DNA from: an uncultured Verrucomicrobiae bacterium
Lineage (GTDB): Bacteria > Verrucomicrobiota > Verrucomicrobiia > Chthoniobacterales > JAATET01
Direction of reading: 5' to 3'
NCBI GenBank assembly: GCA_963719495.1
Contig: CAVRCI010000013.1
Span: 352,001-416,000 of the forward strand
DNA: 64,000 nucleotides
In this document: in pieces, positions 1 to 32,043 of the stretch
Layout of the letters: each line of letters opens with the position of its first letter
Numbering within the stretch: the stretch's first letter is position 1
Made by a program: the position numbers and the translations under genes
Notes under the pieces: generated by a model
What the model saw: the letters and a program-made list of their open reading frames with translations, nothing else
Databases searched by the model: none
What the model was told of the DNA's origin: nothing

Positions 1-3000
1 GGTTCGGTGCGGTAGGCGTCCGCCTGGCCGGCGGAGCGGATGTATTCGGCGTTGACGGTGAGGATGACGTCCCGGATGCGGATGAGCTTGCGCATGACCG
101 CCACCAAGTCCTCGAGTTCGCGGGCGGAGTAGCTGCCTTCGAGTTCGATTCCCTCCGATTCGTCGCCGGAGGCCATTGCGATGATGCCGAGGATGTCGGT
201 GCGGGAGCGGGTCGCGAGGGGGTTGAGGAGGGCGTTGGAGGTGAGGGCGTTTTCGAGGTAGCTGAGTTTGAAGGCGTCAAGGTTGGCGCCGGTGGCGAGG
301 TCGCCGAGATTGTAGGTGTCGGCGCGGTTGGCGAGCATGTCGGGGATGCGGAACTTTTCGCCGCTCTCGGTGTAGGGGTTGCCGGCCATGACGACGGCGA
401 CTTTGCGTCCGCGCAGGTCGTAGGTGCGAGCCTCTCCATTGTGGACGCCTTCGATGCGGCGCTGGCCGTCGCAGAGGGAGATGAACTTCTGGAGGAACTC
501 CGGGGCGCAGTGCTGGATGTCGTCGAGGTAGATCATGACGTTGTCGCCCATCTCGAAGGCGAGGTTCAATTTGATCAATTCCTCGCGCGACGCGGCGTTC
601 GGGGCTTCGGCGGGATCGAGGGAGGTGACGGCGTGGCCGATGGACGGGCCGTTGATCTTCATGAAGACGACGCCGAGGCGGTTGGCGACGTATTCCATGA
701 GGGTCGTCTTGCCGTAGCCGGGGGGCGAGACGAGGAGGAGGAGGCCCATGCGGTCGGTCCGGGTGTTCTCCCCGGCGGTGCCCATCTGTTTGGCGAGGTT
801 CGCGCCGATGAGCGGGAGGAAGACGCGGTCGACGAGCTGGTTGCGGACGAAGGACGAGAGGACGCGGGCGGCAAATTGCTCGGGGCGGAGGCGGCGCCTG
901 GCGTCGTCGACGGCGCGGCGCTTGGCGGCCTGGAAGCGCTCGAAGGCGGGGACGGTCTCGTCGGCGTGACGGCCGAGGCGGTCGATGAAGTCGAGGTAAT
1001 CGAGGCGGATGGTGCCGTTCTCGACGGTGGGGTGCTGGCCGAGGATGGGGGCGATCTGAGCCTCGAGCGTGACGTCGACGATCTCGGCGTTGTCGCGTTG
1101 GAGGAGGAGGACGATTTCGTCGCGGTAGCGGTTCTCTGGCCCGGCGGACGCGACGCGAGAGGGCGACGGACCCTTCGGCGAAGGGTCCCTACCGTGGGTG
1201 GGGGCTGCCAGGAATCCGCCCACCCAATCGCGCAGTATCTCAAAATCGTCGTCCACCGAAGCCCGGAGCGCGGCGAAGCGGTCGTCGGCCTTTTGCTCGG
1301 CGAGCGACTTGACGAACTGGCCGCGCAGCGATGCGGCGTCCTGACTGAAACGGAAGGTTTTGTCGCCGGTGAGGACGTCGAACAGATACGCGGCCGCGGC
1401 TGGCGCGGTCGTGGTGTCGAAGTGGGGGGCTTCGCGGCAGATGGCATCGAGGCGGGCGAGGTAGTCGGTCGGTCGGTTGCTCGTCGGGTAGAGCGCGCGC
1501 ATGGCGCCGAAGCTGGCGAGCTGCTGGCGGAGCGTTTCGTCGGGGTGCGCTTCCCACGCGACGACTCCGTGGGCGCGGGCGGGCGGGGCGTGGCGGAGGG
1601 TGCCGATGGACGCGTGAATTTCGGTTAATGCGGTGAGGATGAGGGTGGCGTCGTGGTCGTGGACGCCCTTGACGTAGCCTTCGGCGTAGCGGGGGGCCAT
1701 GAAGTCGGCGACCCATTCGGGGGACACGGTCGAGGGGGCGGGACGCCCCCTCCCCTCTTGATCCAGTGCGCGGAGGCACTGGTAGGCGAGGTATTCCGCG
1801 CGGTAGACGGTGGGGGATTCGGAGGGGACTTCGAGGTCCCAGTGGGGTTCGAGGGCGGTGAGTTCGGGGTCGGTGATGGGCGCGAAGTAACGGGTGCCGG
1901 TGAGGTGGATGGCGAGGTGGTCGGCGCGGCGGAGGACGGTGAGTTCGACGGGCTGGACGTTGACGTTGAAGTGGTGGGGGCCGAAGGCGATGACGTTGTC
2001 GCCGCCGACGAACAGTTCCCTTCTGTCGCGGAGTTGGCGGACGGCGTTTTCGCGGATTGTTTTGAGTTCGCTCTGGATGCCGTCGGCTTTAATGGGGTCG
2101 CCGAGGTCGAGGAGCTGGGTGACGACGTCGCGGAGGCGGTCGACCATTTGGTCGGAGGCGTAGAAGCCGTTGATCTCGGGGACGCCGGGGAGCGAATCGA
2201 CGCGGTGGGCGATGCTGTTGAGGAGCCGGTCGGCGACGGATTGGAGGGCGGTGGCGCGGCGGTTGCGGGCGTCGACGAGGGCGAGCTTCCGGGCCTCGAA
2301 GGCGCTCTGGATCTCGGTGCGCTTCTCGGTGAGCTGGATGAGGTATTCGTCGGTGTCGGCGAAGCGGCTCTCGAGTTCTTCGACCTGGACGAGGAGGCGG
2401 TTGAGGAGGTCGTCGCACTTGTCGGGGGTGTCGCAGCGCTCGATGGAATTTGCGACGGCCTGGCCGATGAGGCGGAGCTGGGCGGCGAATTGGGCGGCGT
2501 CTTCGGTGGCTCGGAGGTCGCGCAGGCGCTGGCGGAGGCGGGCGAGGATCTGGTTGAGGGTGGCGTAGATGGCCGAGATGCTCTCGACGATGCGGGTGGT
2601 CTGGGTGGCGTCGTCGATGCGGAGATTGCTGACGATCTCGATGAGGAGTTCGAGGTCGACGCCGGCTTGCTCGATGCAGGTCTCGAGGTCGCGGCCCTGG
2701 ACGACCTTTTCGACGGTGGCGGACTCGGCCGCGAGGGTGGCGGTTTTCTCGCGGTAGGGTTCGAGGGCTTCGTCGCGGAGGAGGAATTGGACGCAGTCCG
2801 CGGCGAGGGCGTCGGATTTTTCGGCTACGGCGGATTCGAACTCGGCGATGGAGTCGAGGTCGACGTAGCGGACGTCGCGGAGGGTGATGAGCTCGGCGCG
2901 GACGGTGCGGAGGTCGATGAGGGCGGCGACGTAGGCGTCGATGGACTGGAGGCTGCCGGGGATGAGGCCGTCGACGAGGGTGCGGGCGCGGGTGCCGAGG

Positions 3001-4538
3001 CGGTCGACCTCGGCGGCGGCGTGGCGGCGGAGCTCGAGGACTTTTTCGAATTCGTCGACGGTGCGGGCGGCGGCTTCGCGGAGGGCGGTGAGGGGCGCGG
3101 CCAGGTCGTGGGCCTCGGGGCTGTCGAGCCAGAAGTAGGCGTCGAGGAGGTCGCCAGCGCGCTTGCGGAGGTCGAGGTAGAGGCCGGCGTAGCTGTCGTC
3201 GCGGTGGAGGAGGGCGAGGATTTCGTGGGCCTCGGCCATGCAGCGGACGAGGGGGGCGTGGCCGATTTTGTAGAGGTAGGAGTCGGTGCGGGTGGCGGTC
3301 TCGTAGCCGGAGCCGGTGAAGGGGGTCTGCCAGATCTGGACGGTGTGGTGCTTCTGCGGCTCGGGGTCAGAGCGGAAGAGGGCGAGCTGGCCGTTGGCGA
3401 AGGTCGAGAAGCCGTTGCAGTGGATGGGGGTGTCGACGCGCTGGGTGATGACGTTGTAGGCCATGAGGACGTAGTCGCCGCGCTCACGGTTGTAGAAGAC
3501 GTAGAGGAAATCTTCGCGATTCGGCGACTGGATGCGGCGCTCGAAGAGCATGTCGGTCGAGTTGGCGTCGAAGAGTTTCAGCTCGCCGTTGCGGAGGTAG
3601 TAGCCGCGCGAGAAGATGATGCCGTGGTCGTCGGGGAGGAGGACGCAGGATTCCTCGATGGCGTCGACGCGGTGGATCTCGTCGAGCTTGTCGTTGAAGA
3701 CGAAGTAGCGCCACGCCTTCTCCTGGTAGGGGCGGATCCGGAGGAGGATGAGGTTGCCGAGGCTGGCGTAGAAGATTTCGGCGTCGTCGAGGGTCTGGTC
3801 GGGGTCGTCGACGGGTTCGCGGTAGAGGCCTTCGCCGGAGGTGGTGTTGTCCTCGATCTTGATCGTGAGGTCGCCGCCGATGCACTCGACGAAGAGGCGG
3901 TCGTCGACGGCGATGTGCGGGTGGACGCCGCCGCGGTGAAAGTCGCGGTGGGTGCGGGTCCACGTGAATTCGTGCTGGGGCGGGAAGATGAATTCGTGGT
4001 CGCTGCGGTTGCCGAGGTAGGTGAATTTGCCGTGGTCGAGCGCCCACTTGAAGGTCTTGATGTCGGTGATGCGGCCGCCGACGCGGAAGACCATGAAGAG
4101 GTGCGGGCCGATGAGGCCGAACTTCGCGAAGACGGTCTCGCGGTAGAATTTGAAGAGGCTCCGGAAGTCGTTCTGGAACTCGGGGTCGGCGAGGAAGTCG
4201 AGCGGGAGGGGGTGGAAGGTCTCGCCGGCCCATTCGAAGGCGGAGAAGACGTCGGCGAGTTGGGTCTCGGTGCGGAGGCCGAGGTGGACGTTGTAGCCGA
4301 GGAGGAAACGGTTGTCGCCGATGGCGACAAGGTCGCGGGGCAGGCAGTTGTTGTCGGTGGTGACGCGGTCGGTGGCGACGAGGGCGGTCTCGATGGAGCC
4401 GAAGACGGCCTGGCGGTCGGCGTTGAGGGCGTCGAGGCGGGTGCGGAGGTCGCGGCCGCAGTCGGTGAGGCGTTGGCGGAGGATCTCGTAGGTGCCGGTT
4501 TCGAGGGTTGGGGCCTCGGGTGGGGTTGGTGCCGGCAT
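1..4538 (-). CDS. Large AAA-type ATPase of the flotillin-associated ('DNA repair ATPase') family, 3' end runs off the window
   Basis: Not in the ORF track, presumably because its stop lies outside the window. ATG at 4538 gives MPAPTPPEAPTLETGTYEILRQRL. The Walker A segment MGLLLLVSPPGYGKTT (about 702-749) is in the same frame, followed by Walker B MIYLDDIQH (about 511-537). About 1510 codons visible; lies downstream of the flotillin gene. Confidence 0.85.
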   Translation of the reverse strand, partial: MPAPTPPEAPTLETGTYEILRQRLTDCGRDLRTRLDALNADRQAVFGSIETALVATDRVTTDNNCLPRDLVAIGDNRFLLGYNVHLGLRTETQLADVFSAFEWAGETFHPLPLDFLADPEFQNDFRSLFKFYRETVFAKFGLIGPHLFMVFRVGGRITDIKTFKWALDHGKFTYLGNRSDHEFIFPPQHEFTWTRTHRDFHRGGVHPHIAVDDRLFVECIGGDLTIKIEDNTTSGEGLYREPVDDPDQTLDDAEIFYASLGNLILLRIRPYQEKAWRYFVFNDKLDEIHRVDAIEESCVLLPDDHGIIFSRGYYLRNGELKLFDANSTDMLFERRIQSPNREDFLYVFYNRERGDYVLMAYNVITQRVDTPIHCNGFSTFANGQLALFRSDPEPQKHHTVQIWQTPFTGSGYETATRTDSYLYKIGHAPLVRCMAEAHEILALLHRDDSYAGLYLDLRKRAGDLLDAYFWLDSPEAHDLAAPLTALREAAARTVDEFEKVLELRRHAAAEVDRLGTRARTLVDGLIPGSLQSIDAYVAALIDLRTVRAELITLRDVRYVDLDSIAEFESAVAEKSDALAADCVQFLLRDEALEPYREKTATLAAESATVEKVVQGRDLETCIEQAGVDLELLIEIVSNLRIDDATQTTRIVESISAIYATLNQILARLRQRLRDLRATEDAAQFAAQLRLIGQAVANSIERCDTPDKCDDLLNRLLVQVEELESRFADTDEYLIQLTEKRTEIQSAFEARKLALVDARNRRATALQSVADRLLNSIAHRVDSLPGVPEINGFYASDQMVDRLRDVVTQLLDLGDPIKADGIQSELKTIRENAVRQLRDRRELFVGGDNVIAFGPHHFNVNVQPVELTVLRRADHLAIHLTGTRYFAPITDPELTALEPHWDLEVPSESPTVYRAEYLAYQCLRALDQEGRGRPAPSTVSPEWVADFMAPRYAEGYVKGVHDHDATLILTALTEIHASIGTLRHAPPARAHGVVAWEAHPDETLRQQLASFGAMRALYPTSNRPTDYLARLDAICREAPHFDTTTAPAAAAYLFDVLTGDKTFRFSQDAASLRGQFVKSLAEQKADDRFAALRASVDDDFEILRDWVGGFLAAPTHGRDPSPKGPSPSRVASAGPENRYRDEIVLLLQRDNAEIVDVTLEAQIAPILGQHPTVENGTIRLDYLDFIDRLGRHADETVPAFERFQAAKRRAVDDARRRLRPEQFAARVLSSFVRNQLVDRVFLPLIGANLAKQMGTAGENTRTDRMGLLLLVSPPGYGKTTLMEYVANRLGVVFMKINGPSIGHAVTSLDPAEAPNAASREELIKLNLAFEMGDNVMIYLDDIQHCAPEFLQKFISLCDGQRRIEGVHNGEARTYDLRGRKVAVVMAGNPYTESGEKFRIPDMLANRADTYNLGDLATGANLDAFKLSYLENALTSNALLNPLATRSRTDILGIIAMASGDESEGIELEGSYSARELEDLVAVMRKLIRIRDVILTVNAEYIRSAGQADAYRTE
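1168..1192 (-). repeat. GTAG-type REP palindrome inside the ATPase CDS
   Basis: Minus strand reads GTAG-GGACCCTTCG-C-CGAAGGGTCC; translated in frame as GRDPSPKGP. Confidence 0.65.
1732..1752. repeat. GGGCGTCCCGCCC-type REP hairpin inside the ATPase CDS
   Basis: gagggggcg-gga-cgccccctc; matches intergenic copies at 36741, 39136, 48897 and 50576. Confidence 0.6.
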
Positions 4539-4572
4539 TTTCAAAAGGAGTGGTGGGGTGACGGTGCGGTGA

Positions 4573-4686
4573 GGTGCGATCCCTTCGGGATCGATGATCG
4601 CGCATTCACCCGCCGTGTCCCCGGGGTGTCGTGGCCTAGCGGCCGACTCAACCCCGTGCTCCTGTGGATGCCATCCCTTCGGGATG
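4573..4686 (+). repeat. Three-hairpin repeat unit (family B), copy 1
   Basis: 114 bp beginning ggtgcgatcccttcgggatc; direct repeat of 5307-5420. Confidence 0.85.
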
Positions 4687-4747
4687 AGACGATCCCGGAG
4701 GGATCTGAGCCGCAGGAGCGCGGGATTGTGGCCCTTCGGGATGATGT

Positions 4748-4848
4748 GATCCCGGAGGGATTCCACCTGCGGGAGGCGGTGGTTGAGCGGAGCGACACCA
4801 CCGTGATACGGTCCGCCTCGAAAGGAATGCACCCCGGAGGGGTGCCAG
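4748..4848 (-). repeat. Family B repeat, diverged inverted copy directly upstream of the transposase
   Basis: gatcccggagggat...ggttgagcggagcgacacc...gcaccccggaggggtgc aligns by eye with the copy at 52652-52755. Confidence 0.7.
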
Positions 4849-4852
4849 CCCC

Positions 4853-5296
4853 GTGTCCACCTACCTGAGCCTCCATTACCACATCGTGTTTTCGACGAAA
4901 GGGCGGAAGCCCTGGCTCGCACCTTCGGTTCGCGTGCGGATGCACGAATACCTTGGCGGCACCGTGAAGGGACTCGGCGCCGAGACGCACGGGGTTGGCG
5001 GGACCGGGGATCACGTGCATTTGCTCGTTTCTTTGCGCGCGACTCATCGGTTGGCGGATTTCATGCGGGAGTTGAAGAAGGCGTCTTCCGCTTTCGCGAA
5101 GGAGGAATGCCGCCTGCCGGGATTCGCCTGGCAGGAGGGGTATTGCGCGATCACGGTGAGTCCGTCGGCGCGGCCTGCGGTTCACGATTACATCTCGCGG
5201 CAGGAGGAACATCACCGGACGCGGACGTTTCGCGAGGAGTTGGTCGAGGTGCTCGAGAAGGCGGGGGTGGCGTATGAGGATCGGTTTTTGGAGTGA
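4853..5296 (+). mobile_element. tnpA: IS200/IS605-like Y1 (HUH) tyrosine transposase flanked by palindromic repeats
   Basis: 147 aa with motifs HYHIVFSTK, DHVHLL (HUH), WQEGY and YISRQEEHH (catalytic Tyr). No tnpB. Lies antisense between the flotillin and ATPase genes. Confidence 0.9.
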
Positions 5297-7963: not shown

Positions 7964-8118
7964 CGGGAAGAGGGAGGCGGTGAGGAGTTCGGTCTTAGCG
8001 TTTTCGGTTTTAAGCGGGATAGGTGGTTTGTGCTTTTTAAATTTTCGTGTTTTTTTTCAGCACTTTTGGGGTGGGGCGTGGAGGGTGAGGGGTTTGACGC
8101 TTCGCGTTTGGGGAGGAG

Positions 8119-8166
8119 GCTCCGAGCTGGAAGCTCGAAGCGGCGGGCTGGAAGCCCGCGGTCCCC
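8119..8166 (-). repeat. Family A REP (double CTTCCAG hairpin)
   Basis: gctccgagctggaagctcgaagcggcgggctggaagcccgcggtcccc; same family as the repeats in and around alaS. Confidence 0.9.
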
Positions 8167-25925: not shown

Positions 25926-26004
25926 GGGGACCGCGACCTTCCAGGTCGCCGCTCCGGGCTTCCAGCCCGGAGCCACGTCCAAAACCGGCGAAGCCGCACT
26001 TCCC
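25926..26004 (+). repeat. Family A REP abutting the alaS stop codon
   Basis: ggggaccgcgaccttccaggtcgccgctccgggcttccagcccggagcc...ccggcgaagccgcacttccc. Confidence 0.9.
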
Positions 26005-29000
26005 TCACCCCGCCAAAACCCGCTCCGCCTCCGCCAGCGCCTCGCGCAATTTCGTCACATCCTTCCCGCCCCCACGCGCCGCTTCCGGTCGTCCGCCCCC
26101 CTTGCCTCCGACGACCGGCGCGATCGCTTTGATCACATCGCCAGCCCGAACCACCCCGACGAACTCCAGCGACACCGTCGCCACCAAGGCCACAACCCCA
26201 TCCGCCGCCCCCGCAAGCACCAACGCCCCCTCGAACCGCCCCTTCAGCGAGTCCGCCATCGCCTGCAACTCATCACCCGAAGCCCCCTCGATCTCCTCGA
26301 TGATCGCGGGCACGAGCAACCCCGCGCTTCGCACCCTGTCGAGCAGCGCACCCGCCGCCGCGGCCGCCTGTTTCTGGCGCAGCGCCGTCACCTGTTTTTC
26401 GAGATCCTTCTGTCGAGCCAACGTCGCCTCCAGCTTGCGCTCCAGCTCCACGACCGGCGCGCCCACCATCGCGGCCAGCGCCCCGAGCTGCCCGGCATCC
26501 GCCGCCCCGCGATCCAGCGCGACGAAACCCGCCACCGCCTCGATCCGCCGCACGCCCGCCGCGATCGCCGACTCCGCCAGAATCCGGAACGGCCCGATTT
26601 CGCCCGTCGCCCGCACGTGCGTTCCGCCGCACAACTCCATGGAATACCCGTCCAGCTCGCCCGCCGCCCCGCCAATCTGCACGACCCGCACGACGTCGCC
26701 GTATTTATCCCCGAAGAACTGCATCACGTCCGCGCGCCCCGCCACGTCGGCGTGCGGCACCTCGGTCCAACTTACCGGCGCGTTCTCGAGAATCCGTTCG
26801 TTCACCAGCCGCTCGACGTCGCGCACCTGCTGATCGCTCAGCGCCGCGCCGTTGAAATCGAACGTCAGCTTTTCCGCCCCCACGTAGGACCCCTTCTGCG
26901 AAGCCTCGCGGTTCACGACCTCGTGGATCGCCCAGTGCAGCAGGTGCGTGACCGTGTGGTGCCGCGCCACCGCCGCCCGCCGCTCGCAGTCGATCACCAC
27001 CGAGACCCGCGAGCCCGTTTCCGGCGCGTCGTCGCCGTCGATGAAGTGTAAAAACGTCGCGCCCGCCTTGCGCACGTCAGTCACCGACCAACTCGCCGCC
27101 CCGTGCGAGATAAGACCCCAGTCGCCGACCTGCCCGCCCATCTCCGCGTAGCAAACCGTCGCGTCAAGGACCACCGCCGTCCGGTCTTTCACCGCCACGA
27201 CATCCAGCACCTCGGCGTCCATTTCGTCCGTCTCGAACCCTTCGAACCGCGTCACCCCCGACCCGTCGAAACTGGCCAGACTGATCACCTCCTTCTTCTG
27301 AGCCGCCCGAGCCCGGCTGCGCTGCGCCTCCATCAACGTTTCGAAACCCGCCGTATTCACCGAGAGCCCCCGCTCCCGCGCCATCAGCTCCGTCAGATCC
27401 AGCGGGAACCCCTGCTCGTCATAGAGCTTGAACGCAAACTCCCCGGAAATCACCCCGGGAGCGCCAGCACCCCGGGGACCGCGACCTTCCAGGTCGCCGC
27501 TTCGAGCTTCCAGCTCGGAGCCACGTTCCAATCCCGGCGAAGCCGCACTTCCCGCACCCGCAGCCTCCGCCCGCCCCCGAAACCAAATCCACGAATAATC
27601 CTCCTCCGGTCCCACGACGTCCGACCGCCAGGGATTCGAAAGCACGTAGTGAAACTTTTCCTCCACGTCGGCATCCGACCGCATGAGCCGGTCGTGATAT
27701 TCGTTCTCCCAGAGTTGCTCCCCTTCTCGACCCTCCAGCTTGTTGACCTCATTCGCGGTGAACGATTTCAGCGAATGGAAAATCTCCGCCAGTCCAAAGA
27801 AGCTCGGCTCTCCAACGGCATCCCCGCCGTTGACCATAGGCTGAAGCAAAACGTGCACGTGGTCCGGCATCACGCAAGCCGCGTAGAGTTCGTAGCGTCG
27901 GCCATCGAAGTGCCGAAGCGAGTTCATGACGACGTCGCGCGCCGGCTCGGTCAGGATGCGATGGTCCCGTGTCGAAAAAGTCACGTGGTAGATGCCGTGC
28001 GGACGTTCGTAGTGCGGGAGGCGGCGTTTCCAGTAGCGAGCGCCCGCGGCGGGCGATTGGGGGGAAGCTCCGAGCTGGAAGCTCGAAGCAGCGACCTGGA
28101 AGGTCGCGCTCCCCAGCCTTTCGGCTTCGCTTTCGAACATCGCGATCCCGCGATCCAGCGTCCGATTGAACGCCTCCTCCTCCATGTGCAGCACCTCGCG
28201 AATGTGCCCCTGCTGCCGCCGCAACTCCGGAAAGACATCGCCCATCGATCGCACGACCACGTCCGACAATTTGTAGAAAAACGGCTCGTGAAACCCCAGC
28301 TCCCGCCCGTATTTCACCGCCCGCCGCAGGATTCGCCGCAGGACGTAATTTCGGTCCGAGTTCCCCGGCTGAATCCCATCCGCGATGGAAAACGTCAACG
28401 TCCGGATGTGATCCGCGATCACCCGAAACGCCACGTCACCCCGCTCCTGGTCCGATTCACCCGCCGACCCCGCCATCGGCAGAGTCGACCCGTATTTCCG
28501 CCCGCTCATCGTCTCCAGCTCGTCGAAGATCGGCCGGAAGATATCCGTTTCGTAATTCGAGATCTTCGCGTTCGCAAAATCCGTGAACCCCCGTGTCCCC
28601 TGAATGATCGAAGTCACCCGCTCGAACCCCATCCCCGTATCCACGTGCTGCGCCGGCAGCGGCACGAACGACCCGTCCGGATTCGCGTTGAACTGAATGA
28701 ACACGAGATTCCAAATCTCGATGCACCGCGCGTCCCCCGCGTTCACCAGCGACCCCCGCGTATCCCCGGCGGGCGTCAAATCGACGTGCAGCTCCGAGCA
28801 AGGCCCGCACGGCCCCGTCTCGCCCATCATCCAGAAATTATCCGCCTTGTTCCCGTTGACGATTTGCACCGCCGGATCGAGTCCCACCGCGCGAAAAAGC
28901 TCCGCCCAAAGATCCCACGCCTCCTGGTCGAACTCGCTCGGATCCCCTTCCCCCGGGGCGTAAACCGTCGCGTAAAGCCGCTCCGCCGGGAATCCCCACC

Positions 29001-29376
29001 GCTCCACCACCAGCTCCCAAGCCCACCGGATCGCCTCCGCTTTGAAGTAATCGCCGAAGCTCCAATTTCCCAGCATCTCGAAGAACGTCTGGTGGTAGGT
29101 ATCCAGCCCAACATCCTCGAGGTCGTTGTGTTTCCCGCCCGCGCGAATGCACTTCTGCGTGTCCGTCGCCCGCGTGTCGCGCCCCGGCACGCCCCCCGCC
29201 CAGCGGCTCACGTCCGGTGCCTTCTGACCCAGGAAGATCGGGACAAATTGGTTCATCCCCGCGTTCGTGAAGAGCAGGTTCGGCGAGTCCGGCATCAGGC
29301 TGGACGACGGCACCACCGAGTGCCCCTTCGAAGCGAAAAAATCCAAATACGACTGCCGAATCTCAGAACTGGTCAT
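26005..29376 (-). CDS. alaS: Alanine--tRNA ligase with an in-frame RAYT transposase insertion (1123 aa)
   Basis: LLFTNAGMNQF, FFEMLGNWSFGDYFK, DTGMGFER, VIADHIR, editing motifs HHTVTH and ELCGGTH, and C-terminal GGKGGG are all present. Residues about 422-640 are foreign. Confidence 0.97.
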   Translation of the reverse strand: MTSSEIRQSYLDFFASKGHSVVPSSSLMPDSPNLLFTNAGMNQFVPIFLGQKAPDVSRWAGGVPGRDTRATDTQKCIRAGGKHNDLEDVGLDTYHQTFFEMLGNWSFGDYFKAEAIRWAWELVVERWGFPAERLYATVYAPGEGDPSEFDQEAWDLWAELFRAVGLDPAVQIVNGNKADNFWMMGETGPCGPCSELHVDLTPAGDTRGSLVNAGDARCIEIWNLVFIQFNANPDGSFVPLPAQHVDTGMGFERVTSIIQGTRGFTDFANAKISNYETDIFRPIFDELETMSGRKYGSTLPMAGSAGESDQERGDVAFRVIADHIRTLTFSIADGIQPGNSDRNYVLRRILRRAVKYGRELGFHEPFFYKLSDVVVRSMGDVFPELRRQQGHIREVLHMEEEAFNRTLDRGIAMFESEAERLGSATFQVAASSFQLGASPQSPAAGARYWKRRLPHYERPHGIYHVTFSTRDHRILTEPARDVVMNSLRHFDGRRYELYAACVMPDHVHVLLQPMVNGGDAVGEPSFFGLAEIFHSLKSFTANEVNKLEGREGEQLWENEYHDRLMRSDADVEEKFHYVLSNPWRSDVVGPEEDYSWIWFRGRAEAAGAGSAASPGLERGSELEARSGDLEGRGPRGAGAPGVISGEFAFKLYDEQGFPLDLTELMARERGLSVNTAGFETLMEAQRSRARAAQKKEVISLASFDGSGVTRFEGFETDEMDAEVLDVVAVKDRTAVVLDATVCYAEMGGQVGDWGLISHGAASWSVTDVRKAGATFLHFIDGDDAPETGSRVSVVIDCERRAAVARHHTVTHLLHWAIHEVVNREASQKGSYVGAEKLTFDFNGAALSDQQVRDVERLVNERILENAPVSWTEVPHADVAGRADVMQFFGDKYGDVVRVVQIGGAAGELDGYSMELCGGTHVRATGEIGPFRILAESAIAAGVRRIEAVAGFVALDRGAADAGQLGALAAMVGAPVVELERKLEATLARQKDLEKQVTALRQKQAAAAAGALLDRVRSAGLLVPAIIEEIEGASGDELQAMADSLKGRFEGALVLAGAADGVVALVATVSLEFVGVVRAGDVIKAIAPVVGGKGGGRPEAARGGGKDVTKLREALAEAERVLAG
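27457..28114 (-). mobile_element. REP-flanked Y1 tyrosine transposase (RAYT-like) cassette embedded in frame in alaS
   Basis: RRLPH, YHVTFST, VMPDHVHVLL (HUH), LKSFTA, LWENEYHDRLMR and HYVLSNP (catalytic Tyr). Inverted repeats at 27474-27521 and 28067-28114 match at 46 of 48 positions. Confidence 0.92.
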
Positions 29377-29415
29377 CACGTAAAACACCGTCCCCAAAAC
29401 CAAAAAGAAAAGCAA

Positions 29416-29490
29416 GGGGACCGCGACCTTCCAGGTCGCCGCTTCGAGCTTCCAGCTCGAAGCCCCCCAAACCCGGCGAAGCCGCACTCC
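29416..29490 (+). repeat. Family A REP 40 bp upstream of the alaS start
   Basis: ggggaccgcgaccttccaggtcgccgcttcgagcttccagctcgaagcc...ccggcgaagccgcactcc. Confidence 0.9.
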
Positions 29491-29496
29491 AGCCTC

Positions 29497-30495
29497 TTAA
29501 ATCTCCGGAATCAGATCCACCACTTCCCCCCGCGAGAACCGCACCCCGCTCCCCGCCAACCCCTCACCCTCCACGCGCAGCTCCATCCGCTCCACCCCGT
29601 CCAGCTCCCCCGCCCCACCCGATATCACCTCGACCCGCCGCCCCCGCCACACCGCGCCCCCGTCCTCCGTCGGCGACACGCCCCCCACGAACCGCGCCGC
29701 CGCCCGCGGCGTCCCCGACGTCGTCACGACCGCCATCACCTCCGCGTCCCGATCGACCCCACGCGAGATCACCATCCGCACCGCCTCGCCACCCAAAGTC
29801 CCCGGATAAGCCAACCCCGTCGCCAACCGCTCCCGCAAAGCCGCCTCCGCCTCCGCCGCCCGCCGCGCAAAAGCCGCCTCCCAGTCCGCCCGCAACGCCT
29901 CCAACCCAGCGACGACCACGCCCACCTCCGCCAAAGCCCGCCCCGCCGCCTCCGTCCCGACGACCGGAATCTCGGGCCGCACCACCGTCTCGCCCGTCAG
30001 CTCGAGCGTGTTCCCCGATTCCTCGATCACCCAGCCGCCCTCCACCGTCGGCCGAAGTTCCAAGGTCACCAGCGCCGGCAGCTCCGACCCCGCCGAATGC
30101 TCGACCCGCTTGAGCAAAAATCCATACCGCGCCTGCTGCCACGTCCGCTCGATCGACGTCCGCAACGCCGCCCCCTCCGGCAAACGTCCCGCCGCCCAAT
30201 CTCTTACCGCGTCCAGCCTCGCCGCCAGCGCCCCGGCACTCTCCACCCCAAACCCATCGAAGATCGTCACCATCTCCCGCCGCGTCCGATACCGCACCGG
30301 CACGGACGTCCGAAAGCGCCCGTCGCCGATGGCCTCGAGCGGAAACTCCCCCGTCACCTCGACCAGCGAAGCGTTCTCCGGCGGATTCCCCGCCACGAAT
30401 TCCCGCACCAGATCACCCCGCCGATCCGAGCACCCAACGACCGCCCCCAGCACGACCGCCACCGCGGCCCATCGCACCCATTGCCGAACCATCAT
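29497..30495 (-). CDS. Hypothetical lipoprotein
   Basis: Signal peptide ending in the lipobox-like VVGC; about 332 aa; codon style matches neighbouring genes. Confidence 0.65.
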   Translation of the reverse strand: MMVRQWVRWAAVAVVLGAVVGCSDRRGDLVREFVAGNPPENASLVEVTGEFPLEAIGDGRFRTSVPVRYRTRREMVTIFDGFGVESAGALAARLDAVRDWAAGRLPEGAALRTSIERTWQQARYGFLLKRVEHSAGSELPALVTLELRPTVEGGWVIEESGNTLELTGETVVRPEIPVVGTEAAGRALAEVGVVVAGLEALRADWEAAFARRAAEAEAALRERLATGLAYPGTLGGEAVRMVISRGVDRDAEVMAVVTTSGTPRAAARFVGGVSPTEDGGAVWRGRRVEVISGGAGELDGVERMELRVEGEGLAGSGVRFSRGEVVDLIPEI

Positions 30496-30539
30496 CCGAG
30501 AACCCATCGCAGCCCGCTCTCCGCCCGGTCGTCGCCGCG

Positions 30540-31106
30540 TTAGTTGCCGAGCAGACCCTGCTTGAGCGACTCCGCCGCCGGCTTCGGCCCAAAGAACAAA
30601 CTCAGAAACGCCTGCTGGAAATCCTTCCCCTCCACCGAGCCTTTGTAAGACCCACCATCGTAGACCTTCGTCTCATCGCCCACCAACACGACCCGCTGCG
30701 TCTCCAGCTTCCCGATCGGATCGAACATCGCCACGAACGCCTTCCGGTCCGCCTCGAACCCGTCGTAGGGATCGGTCACGCTGAAATCGAACTGCTTGTT
30801 CCAACCATCGTCGACCTGCCCCTGATTCGCCGATCGCAGGAACGTGAAATGGAACTCGAGCGGCCCCTCGGAGCCCATCACCGCGCCCGCCGATCCCAAT
30901 TGGGAAGGCGCAAAGAACGCCGCCACGTAAACCTTGATCGGAATGAACGCCAACTTGATCGACCGCACCCCCGTGCCGTTCAGTTTCAATGAAGTCCCCG
31001 CGACCGTCACCGACCCCGGCACATCCACCCCCTCGACCGATTTCGCGCTCAGCGTCCCCATCGCCACCAATCCACAGATCGTCACCGCACTGAAAAAATT
31101 TCTCAT
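30540..31106 (-). CDS. Chalcone-isomerase-like exported protein
   Basis: Signal peptide; LKLNGTGVR, KVYVAA and F..AFLSLFFG.KP....LKQGLLG motifs. Confidence 0.85.
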   Translation of the reverse strand: MRNFFSAVTICGLVAMGTLSAKSVEGVDVPGSVTVAGTSLKLNGTGVRSIKLAFIPIKVYVAAFFAPSQLGSAGAVMGSEGPLEFHFTFLRSANQGQVDDGWNKQFDFSVTDPYDGFEADRKAFVAMFDPIGKLETQRVVLVGDETKVYDGGSYKGSVEGKDFQQAFLSLFFGPKPAAESLKQGLLGN

Positions 31107-31968: not shown

Positions 31969-32043
31969 GGGGACCGCGAGCTTCCAGCTCGCCGCTTCGG
32001 GCTTCCAGCCCGAAGCCCCCCAACCCGGCGAAGCCGCACTCCC
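31969..32043 (+). repeat. Family A REP between convergent genes
   Basis: ggggaccgcgagcttccagctcgccgcttcgggcttccagcccgaagcc...ccggcgaagccgcact. Confidence 0.9.

Follow-up and report, generated by a model that had tools for sequence, protein, structure and literature searches.

The question raised by this locus is how a REP-associated tyrosine transposase (RAYT; REP, repetitive extragenic palindromic sequence) comes to lie in frame inside alaS, the essential gene encoding alanyl-tRNA synthetase (AlaRS), and whether it is translated as part of that enzyme. The locus belongs to a stretch of 64,000 nucleotides (nt), here called the window (positions 352,001 to 416,000 of contig CAVRCI010000013.1, assembly GCA_963719495.1), from an uncultured, soil-type Verrucomicrobiae bacterium; the genome of this contig is referred to as G000 and its relatives as G001, G002 and so on. 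RAYTs have so far been portrayed as domesticated transposases of unknown function that exist as single-copy, free-standing genes. The insert of the window is probably a complete REPtron (a RAYT between inverted REPs) that occupies, in frame, a permissive loop on the surface of AlaRS and is translated as part of the synthetase.

Extent and reading frame of the insert

The alaS coding sequence occupies positions 26005..29376 of the minus strand and encodes 1123 aa from the ATG at 29376 (MTSSEIR...), a start common to its homologues, within an uninterrupted minus-strand open frame of 1160 aa (26005..29487). The in-frame insert (27457..28113, minus strand; aa 422-640) comprises 219 codons (657 bp), arranged as REP arm, RAYT core and REP arm, and is flanked by ...FESEAERL and GVISGEF..., with zero stop codons. 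Comparison with the empty sites of three relatives of the same genus gave 654 bp (218 codons); the insert ends fall in a run of G, making the boundary uncertain by 1-3 nt, and no clear target duplication was seen when the DNA was compared with these empty sites. The insert begins with Gly-Ser-Ala and ends with Gly-Ala, the next residue being Gly.

The insert carries the motifs RRLPH, DHVH, YVLSNP and LKSFTA and neither the start nor the stop codon of a free-standing gene. All three frames lacked ATG, GTG and TTG between the 5' REP arm and RRLPH, the earliest in-frame candidate start was the GTG of codon 465, already past residues that are invariant in the family, and there was no stop codon after the RAYT domain. 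Lacking its own start codon, the RAYT could only be produced by read-through from alaS. The initial annotation, made from the letters of the DNA, had reported 219 stop-free codons inside AlaRS, 48-bp inverted repeats with 46 of 48 positions identical, these same four motifs, and the lack of a start before RRLPH and of a stop after the domain; all of this was borne out, the repeat identity over the first 48 nt. Its length of 657 bp was right, its end coordinate of 28114 was one base too far (the end is 28113), and its figure of about 904 aa for AlaRS without the insert agrees with the subtraction (1123 - 219 = 904) and with the 907 aa of an empty relative.

Profiles and fold of the RAYT domain

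The RAYT (HUH / Y1) catalytic domain (27559..28035, minus strand; aa 448-606) was predicted to be well folded, and contains both the HUH motif (27853..27861, minus strand; the codons of His506-Val507-His508 in MPDHVH) and the codon of the catalytic tyrosine (27646..27648, minus strand; Tyr577 in YVLSNP). The searches with Y1_Tnp and RAYT profiles that the initial annotation had proposed gave 24.9 bits for the Pfam family Y1_Tnp on the insert alone (cut-off 23), and a match to the RAYT profile NF047646 over almost its whole length, at a score slightly under the curated cut-off. The AlphaFold2 (AF2) model of the insert, built from 52 sequences, had a mean predicted local distance difference test (pLDDT) of 82.7, and the predicted fold was that of a RAYT: the top Foldseek match in the PDB was 4er8_A (E 1.2e-7, TM-score 0.66 on the target, 155 columns), the E. 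coli TnpA-REP, whose PDB title is 'REP associated tyrosine transposase bound to a REP hairpin'. The next matches were IS200/IS605 TnpA structures. A PDB search with the sequence of the insert returned weak IS200-type matches only, the best being 2fyx at E 0.053.

Two other identities were rejected. The IS200/IS605 TnpA profile NF033573 scored only 17.8 bits against a cut-off of 55. Inteins are recognised by a Hint domain, an N-terminal Cys, Ser or Thr, a C-terminal His-Asn and a nucleophile at position +1; no Hint or intein family was found in the Pfam and NCBIfam scans, and the termini are Gly-Ser-Ala and Gly-Ala, with Gly at +1.

The REP arms and the REP family of the genome

The 5' REP arm in gene orientation (28055..28114, minus strand) has the foot GGGGAGC, hairpin 1 and hairpin 2, and is translated as GSATFQVAASSFQLGAS...; the 3' REP arm (27474..27533, plus strand) is an inverted copy of it, whose minus-strand translation is ...GSELEARSGDLEGRGP.... 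In the repeat search of the window the two inverted arms extended over 60 nt and were 88% complementary. Both hairpins have TCC loops: hairpin 1 is GCGACCT-TCC-AGGTCGC (28091-28114, including the foot) and hairpin 2 is CGAGCT-TCC-AGCTCG.

The inverted REPs that flank the RAYT recur in the genome. The 35-nt core of the arm occurred five times in the window at no more than three mismatches, compared with zero expected from 100 shuffles, and a relaxed blastn-short search of the genome gave 28 matches. Six lie in a 24-kb stretch around alaS, among them one on each side of the gene. These two extragenic copies lie just upstream of the alaS start (29416..29464, plus strand; 98% over 49 nt) and just downstream of its stop (25926..25978, plus strand; 94% over 53 nt); further copies are found at 8118..8166 (minus strand; 92% over 49 nt) and 31969..32009 (plus strand; 93% over 41 nt).

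The same organisation, with other stems, was found at other loci. The foot GGGGAGC followed by a 7-bp stem and a TCC-type loop starts all ten of the alaS- or recG-nested units examined, and an inverted copy ends nine of the ten. The stems vary from locus to locus with the pairing kept (GCGACCT/AGGTCGC, GCGGGCT/AGCCCGC, ACAGGCT/AGCCTGT, GCACGCG/CGCGTGT, ACAGGCC/GGCCTGT, GCGCCCG/CGGGTGC), and among 19 aligned arms both sides had changed in five of the seven base pairs, so that the stems covary across loci. The foot was GGGGAGC in these 19 arms, rather than GTAG or CGTC, the tetranucleotides that tag one end of the hairpin in the REPs of Di Nocera et al. (2013); a second RAYT subtype, present in the valS and hsdR genes of relatives, does have GTAG-tagged hairpins. 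A genome scan for the foot plus a 7-bp hairpin gave 106 matches, of which 81 had a TCC loop, combined with several stems, compared with 16-41 in four controls with permuted feet, and the RAYT family model had 12 matches in the genome; the several stem variants and the 12 RAYT matches are hints, from sequence, of cognate RAYT-REP pairs. Under strict counting, the members of this REP superfamily (foot GGGA[GA]C, 7-bp stem, TCC loop) were distributed among the stems GCACGCG (24), GCGGGCT (15), ACAGGCA (8), ACAGGCT (7), GCGCCCG (5) and GCGACCT (5).

The host gene

The 1123-aa AlaRS scored 796.6 bits against TIGR00344 (cut-off 457.05), and all the domains of an alanine--tRNA ligase were present: tRNA-synt_2c (in two stretches), tRNA_SAD and DHHA1. 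The N-terminal part (28114..29376, minus strand; aa 1-421) comprises the aminoacylation core and the greater part of the helical tRNA-recognition subdomain and closes with the helix 389-423; the C-terminal part (26005..27456, minus strand; aa 641-1123) contains the remainder of the helical subdomain, the editing domain with tRNA_SAD, and C-Ala/DHHA1. In a sequence alignment, aa 3-425 of the N-terminal part matched residues 4-388 of the 441-residue E. coli catalytic fragment (PDB 3hxu), indicating that the insertion site, at about residue 388 of 3hxu, is inside the helical tRNA-recognition subdomain and not at a domain border. The parts of AlaRS gave one tblastn locus in the genome (4.54 Mb, 16 contigs, 98.6% complete), which is thus the sole alaS; the second copy for which the initial annotation had advised a search was not found. 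The ratio of nonsynonymous to synonymous substitution rates (dN/dS) of the host parts was 0.09-0.25 (G000 versus two relatives), and judged from these sequence data alaS looks functional.

The repeats that bound the insert are of a kind able to mislead assemblers, and the genome is in 16 contigs; the junctions could therefore have been misassembled via the repeats, or this alaS could be a dying copy, with another one functional. We regard an artefact or decay of this type as extremely improbable: the same architecture is present at the same codon in two other genomes and in 114 further database proteins (among the best 120 matches of the protein search given below), from independent assemblies; a separate 221-nt metagenome contig (run X1, one difference), which may come from the source sample, covers 27959-28179 and bridges the junction at 28114; no second alaS was found in the 98.6%-complete genome; and the low host dN/dS goes together with fully intact AlaRS domains.

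Selection on the RAYT core and on the linkers

Among 75 aligned AlaRS::RAYT proteins with the insert at the window's site, 22 positions of the insert were invariant, including H506, H508 and Y577, and regular expressions found HUH in 112 and Y..NP in 101 of 120 listed proteins. The Nei-Gojobori dN/dS, an estimate that the initial annotation had recommended, was calculated for the three pairs among G000, G002 and G014. For the core (152 codons) it was 0.14-0.15, with a synonymous rate (dS) of 1.2-1.7; for the linkers it was 0.56-0.79, with a dS of 0.36-0.79, lower than in the core, over just 20-33 codons. On this codon evidence, the core ratios show strong purifying selection at the protein level, so that the RAYT is presumably made, and the high dN/dS and low dS of the linkers form the pattern expected of constraint as DNA hairpins and not as peptide. 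From the protein-level purifying selection and the missing start codon we infer that the insert is translated as a fusion with AlaRS.

Filled and empty alaS sites in relatives

A search of 30 related genomes with the whole fusion protein, which also supplied the alignment to relatives' AlaRS called for by the initial annotation, defined both filled and empty sites; none of the statements made here depends on the unpublished genome G016. The insert was present at the same site in G002 (same genus; 80% identity over residues 1-1122) and at the same codon in G014 (another genus; core 71% identical), whereas G004, G003 and G001, all of the same genus, have a clean empty site in which ...FEGEAERL is followed directly by GASGEISGEFAF. 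Overall, the insert was absent from three of the five alaS copies in the genus and from 14 of the 17 aligned alaS loci.

The tree of the host N-terminal part was (G002,(G000,(G004,G003,G001))), with Shimodaira-Hasegawa-like approximate likelihood ratio test (SH-aLRT) values of 99/99/97, and G000 was nearer to the genomes with empty sites than to G002 along the gene, up to both junctions. The nucleotide identity between G000 and G002 was the same in the core windows (0.72-0.78) as in the flanks (0.71-0.77), and no co-conversion tract, the sign of recent homing from a G002-like donor, was found along the gene. The host tree and the even identity of insert and flanks indicate ancestral inheritance with one precise loss; recent homing does not fit. 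The clean empty site in the sister clade fits a rare, precise (seamless) excision at the DNA level, as far as sequence comparison can tell. Across the 75 fusions, the mean pairwise identity was 0.70 in the host parts and 0.65 in the RAYT core, and the RAYT and host distance matrices were correlated (Mantel r 0.51, 0/999 permutations as high), indicating largely vertical descent.

Other relatives have unrelated extra segments of 50-140 aa at this loop. The possibility that those of G010, G011, G015, G012, G020, G021 and G023 are decayed RAYTs gained no support (unfiltered hmmsearch with the core profile, best E > 1); since the core profile does not detect them, the loop appears to be simply variable. 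Among these segments, one of about 60 aa is common to G011, G010 and G015 (L006/L008/L010), and the alaS of G020 (L028) has about 137 aa at the loop plus about 72 aa near residue 306-310. The alaS of G001 (L005) is split over two frames (801 and 255 aa) near query residue 881, by a frameshift or an assembly error.

RAYTs nested in other genes and other genomes

The 12 RAYT matches of the genome include two further nested cases. In recG, a related RAYT (44% identical) lies in frame on contig C14 at 101508-102143 (minus strand; 926-aa frame), between GSGKT and DEQH, and a RAYT occupies the same recG site in seven relatives (G001, G003, G004, G005, G013, G020, G023). In leuS, the second RAYT subtype lies in frame on contig C10 at 2638-2925 (minus strand; 1096-aa frame, LPHWQQ...MPNHVHVV...WKSFTA); this subtype was found in the leuS, valS, carB and hsdR genes of relatives. 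The nine further RAYT family matches of the genome are all in shorter open frames. A Pfam scan of fifteen open frames around the RAYT matches of relatives identified seven RecG, two LeuRS and one each of ThrRS, ValRS, CarB, a type I restriction R subunit and a stand-alone RAYT, plus one cation-efflux protein that has a RAYT at its C-terminal end, perhaps in fact an adjacent gene that shares its frame. The thrS-nested RAYT (G013, L013 ~4514-4966) has a direct repeat of about 105 nt on both sides (GRVGVPPADAGILPGSRSKASGGTPDAAGATPTLPA) in place of inverted arms.

The insert was also searched against a collection of 5.8 billion proteins, keeping the longer proteins only, which gave 875 matches at E<=1e-5 among 5911 candidates. 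The best 120 of these 875, to which the following host and site counts refer, comprised 115 AlaRS (the window's own included; one or both sides align), three cobalamin-dependent methionine synthases (MetH), each with two RAYTs, and two RecG. Three insertion sites were found in alaS (reference residues): ~421-429, which is the window's and the commonest, 300-309 and 566-569. At least 12 AlaRS carry a RAYT near 300-309, nine of them carrying one at the window's site as well, and P0011 has RAYTs at the window's site and near 566-569, ten AlaRS in all being doubly inserted. The database proteins with two RAYTs lie among P0003-P0015, with P0005/P0007/P0008 (AlaRS at different sites; MetH). Many of the proteins are labelled 'alanyl-tRNA synthetase/REP element-mobilizing transposase RayT' by JGI and 'alanine--tRNA ligase-related protein' by NCBI, and they come from Chthoniobacterales, Terrimicrobiaceae, other Verrucomicrobiota and one Nitrospirota bin.

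An exhaustive phmmer search of 1.84 billion cluster representatives gave 6225 proteins at E<=1e-3, 65 of them at E<=1e-30. A Pfam scan of 30 of the long proteins among the best 150 phmmer matches identified 14 AlaRS, five RecG, two DNA methylases, one protein with tRNA_SAD only, one with Y1_Tnp only, and one each of PriA, a glycyl-radical enzyme (PFL), a class I aminoacyl-tRNA synthetase (aaRS), BirA, DUF1156, a ferredoxin-type protein and a methyltransferase-like protein. Of 251 genomes sampled evenly across the phylum, 19 had a homologue at E<=1e-15, and 10 of the 24 matches were in frames of at least 681 aa.

A quick maximum-likelihood tree of 121 RAYT domains placed the RAYT of the window in a clade (SH-aLRT 99) whose 24 rows all derive from alaS site A, the site of the window's insert; one of these rows duplicates the window sequence and is mislabelled 'free'. 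The site-A RAYTs of doubly inserted AlaRS fell in other clades, adjoining copies from the other two alaS sites, and the RAYTs of MetH, ThrRS and the glycyl-radical enzyme were interleaved with short proteins. The placement of the site-A copies indicates that the loop was colonised more than once and that units have moved between sites and genes.

The idea put forward in the initial annotation, of a mobile element lodged in an essential gene and intein-like without splicing motifs, gains from the three alaS sites, the many hosts and the absence of a Hint match. The survey of housekeeping genes for Y1_Tnp domains that it had envisaged was productive (recG, leuS, thrS, valS, carB, metH, priA and others), and its treatment of the case as a single oddity has to be abandoned: the insert is one of a large, old and mostly vertically inherited set.

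Predicted structure of the fusion and alternative explanations

The AF2 model of the 1123-aa protein (75-sequence alignment) had a mean pLDDT of 79. The RAYT core (456-606) reached block means of 84-97, residues 423-455 and 607-639 were below 50, and the host helices 389-423 and 645-655 flank the insert. The REP arms are thus predicted to encode two disordered tethers of about 33 residues, without modelled contact to AlaRS. In the same model, residues 75-109 of the AlaRS catalytic core had pLDDT values below 50 despite their invariance in the alignment.

Several points weigh against reading the insert as a translated, still mobile REPtron, the small codon base of the linker ratios among them. 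On the full protein the Pfam Y1_Tnp score fell to 20.4 bits, below the cut-off of 23, and NCBIfam REP_Tyr_transpos (NF047646) scored 78.1 bits, just below its curated cut-off of 80, with positions 3-145 of 146 covered. The REP variant of the window is scarce (28 relaxed matches; five strict hairpins with the stem GCGACCT), so that ongoing REP mobilisation is not evident. The figure of 95.6% paired cells for the aligned arms is biased upward, arms having been admitted only with no more than two stem mismatches, the host and site tallies cover the best 120 of 875 long matches, and the short 'free' relatives in the tree may belong to longer genes of which short contigs show only a part. Two further points, the pairing of the arms in RNA and the conservation of the core, each lead to a rival explanation.

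The two arms can pair as a terminal RNA stem of about 50 bp (minimum free energy -351.4 kcal/mol, z -6.6), which brings both host junctions together and makes a process at the RNA level physically plausible. The insert could then be removed before the enzyme matures, by RNA processing and ligation at the base of the stem, by ribosomal bypass or, given that linkers predicted to be disordered are open to proteases, by proteolytic release of the nuclease. Removal at the DNA or RNA level by way of the terminal stem was the alternative named in the initial annotation. The linkers, however, are open and in frame in three diverged alaS DNAs and in 75 fusion proteins, which would be needless for RNA removal or bypass, and a RAYT without a start codon needs read-through from alaS; there was no intein or Hint match, the junction residues are not nucleophiles, and the joined form was seen in no DNA contig, although the contigs are very sparse and leave most of the insert uncovered. 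Removal is, on balance, decidedly unlikely.

The RAYT core is nearly as conserved as AlaRS (0.65 versus 0.70) and co-diverges with it, a pattern equally compatible with a trapped selfish unit and with an exapted domain that benefits the host. The insertion would in that case have become a useful part of AlaRS, RecG, MetH and other hosts, either as a domesticated REP-processing nuclease tied to housekeeping expression or as a single-stranded DNA (ssDNA)-binding module of the host enzyme; the dN/dS of 0.14-0.15 and the catalytic residues, invariant in 75 of 75 fusions, are in line with this, as is the argument, in the accessible text of Bertels et al. (2017, PMC5581495), that RAYTs are housekeeping-like and vertically inherited. 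A host-specific role is argued against by the like units in many unrelated enzymes and at three alaS sites; moreover, close relatives do well without the insert (three of five genus alaS copies and 14 of 17 aligned alaS loci are empty), the nine further RAYT family matches speak against dependence on the nested copy, and the tethers are predicted to be disordered, with no modelled contact to AlaRS. We consider exaptation unlikely.

A possible mechanism and its relation to known systems

Under the REPtron reading favoured here, the ribosome would read through the insert and produce an AlaRS in which the REP arms supply two disordered tethers, each about 33 aa long, that hold a folded HUH nuclease of about 150 aa. 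The nested nuclease may still bind and cut REP hairpins in ssDNA, by analogy with the E. coli TnpA-REP, for which endonuclease and DNA-binding activities in vitro are cited in the accessible part of PMC5581495. The arms would have two roles, as cis sites at the DNA level and, once translated, as flexible linkers. The unit would persist as a result of the lethality of imprecise deletion in an essential, single-copy gene and of the expression supplied by that gene, would leave only through rare precise excision, and might now and then colonise new loops. More tentatively, nested REPtrons could constitute a distinct class of non-splicing, intein-like mobile elements, which obtain expression and protection from deletion in the frames of essential genes, and whose enzyme would be active within the host protein and excise the unit seamlessly as a single strand and re-insert it into preferred surface loops; we see this as possible and stop short of calling it probable. 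Such events would account for one alaS loop having been colonised repeatedly.

REPtrons, in the sense of RAYT / TnpA-REP genes flanked by inverted REPs, are described in the accessible texts of Bertels et al. (2017, PMC5581495) and Quentin et al. (2018, PMC6006769). The insert resembles them in its modelled HUH-Y1 fold (best match 4er8_A), its HUH motif and tyrosine, its inverted REP hairpins recurring in the genome and its mostly vertical inheritance, and differs in lacking its own start, stop and promoter, in being nested in frame in an essential gene, in having REP arms translated as linkers, and in the foot GGGGAGC with a TCC loop instead of GTAG or CGTC. With inteins that carry homing endonucleases it has in common an in-frame, selfish mode of insertion into essential translation, replication and repair genes, a nuclease product, several sites per host with two inserts in one protein, and a patchy distribution with clean empty sites in close relatives; unlike inteins, it has no Hint/intein match and no co-conversion tract, its junctions are Gly and not Cys, Ser or Thr, it is presumably unspliced, and its nuclease is predicted to be an ssDNA HUH enzyme acting on hairpins and not a double-strand homing enzyme of the LAGLIDADG/HNH type.

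Intragenic in-frame REPs and the Rickettsia palindromic elements (RPEs) are known (Di Nocera et al. 2013, PMC3733652), and, according to the accessible text of that source, these too are REP-type hairpin DNA in frame, read as tolerated extra peptide; they are short and non-coding, whereas the repeats in alaS lie on either side of a complete, conserved enzyme domain of about 150 aa. The IS200/IS605 elements (IS608, ISDra2 TnpA), which move as single-stranded circles in the account given in the accessible text of PMC6006769, likewise have a Y1 HUH transposase that recognises subterminal hairpins and supplied the next-best fold matches; the insert differs in that its ends are inverted REP copies, in the absence of tnpB and in not being a free-standing insertion sequence.

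REP-flanked RAYTs and intragenic in-frame REPs are thus already known, and a RAYT nested in a host reading frame was not found in print: no description was found in the full-text literature searched, with subscription journals and supplements outside its scope. The words 'fusion', 'fused' and 'within genes' have no occurrence in the accessible text of Bertels et al. (2017, PMC5581495), and the RAYT survey in PMC6006769 states, in its accessible part, that long proteins were set aside ('gene fusions or annotation errors ... discarded').

The findings point to a RAYT lineage that has lived for a long time inside the frames of essential genes (AlaRS, RecG, MetH, other aaRS, CarB, PriA) and has kept its catalytic residues intact. 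Should the fusion be produced, it would represent a second solution, besides protein splicing, for a mobile element in an essential gene; it would also reveal a natural collection of sites at which aaRS and helicases tolerate an inserted domain, offer a handle on RAYT function through expression locked to the host gene, and constitute a natural HUH 'tag' on housekeeping enzymes. For annotation, such genes are currently named 'alanine--tRNA ligase-related protein' or named doubly, and long RAYTs were discarded as errors in the main survey, as worded in the accessible part of PMC6006769.

Other features of the locus

Two minor observations concern open frames that overlap alaS. The start at GTG 29487 (window 29377-29487, minus strand), used in the 1160-aa database protein P0002, adds an N-terminal extension (MRLRRVWGASSWKLEAATWKVAV...) translated from the upstream REP copy and is probably wrong. 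A frame of 1146 aa antisense to alaS (window 27103-30543, plus strand) is most likely no gene and a by-product of high G+C content and codon bias.

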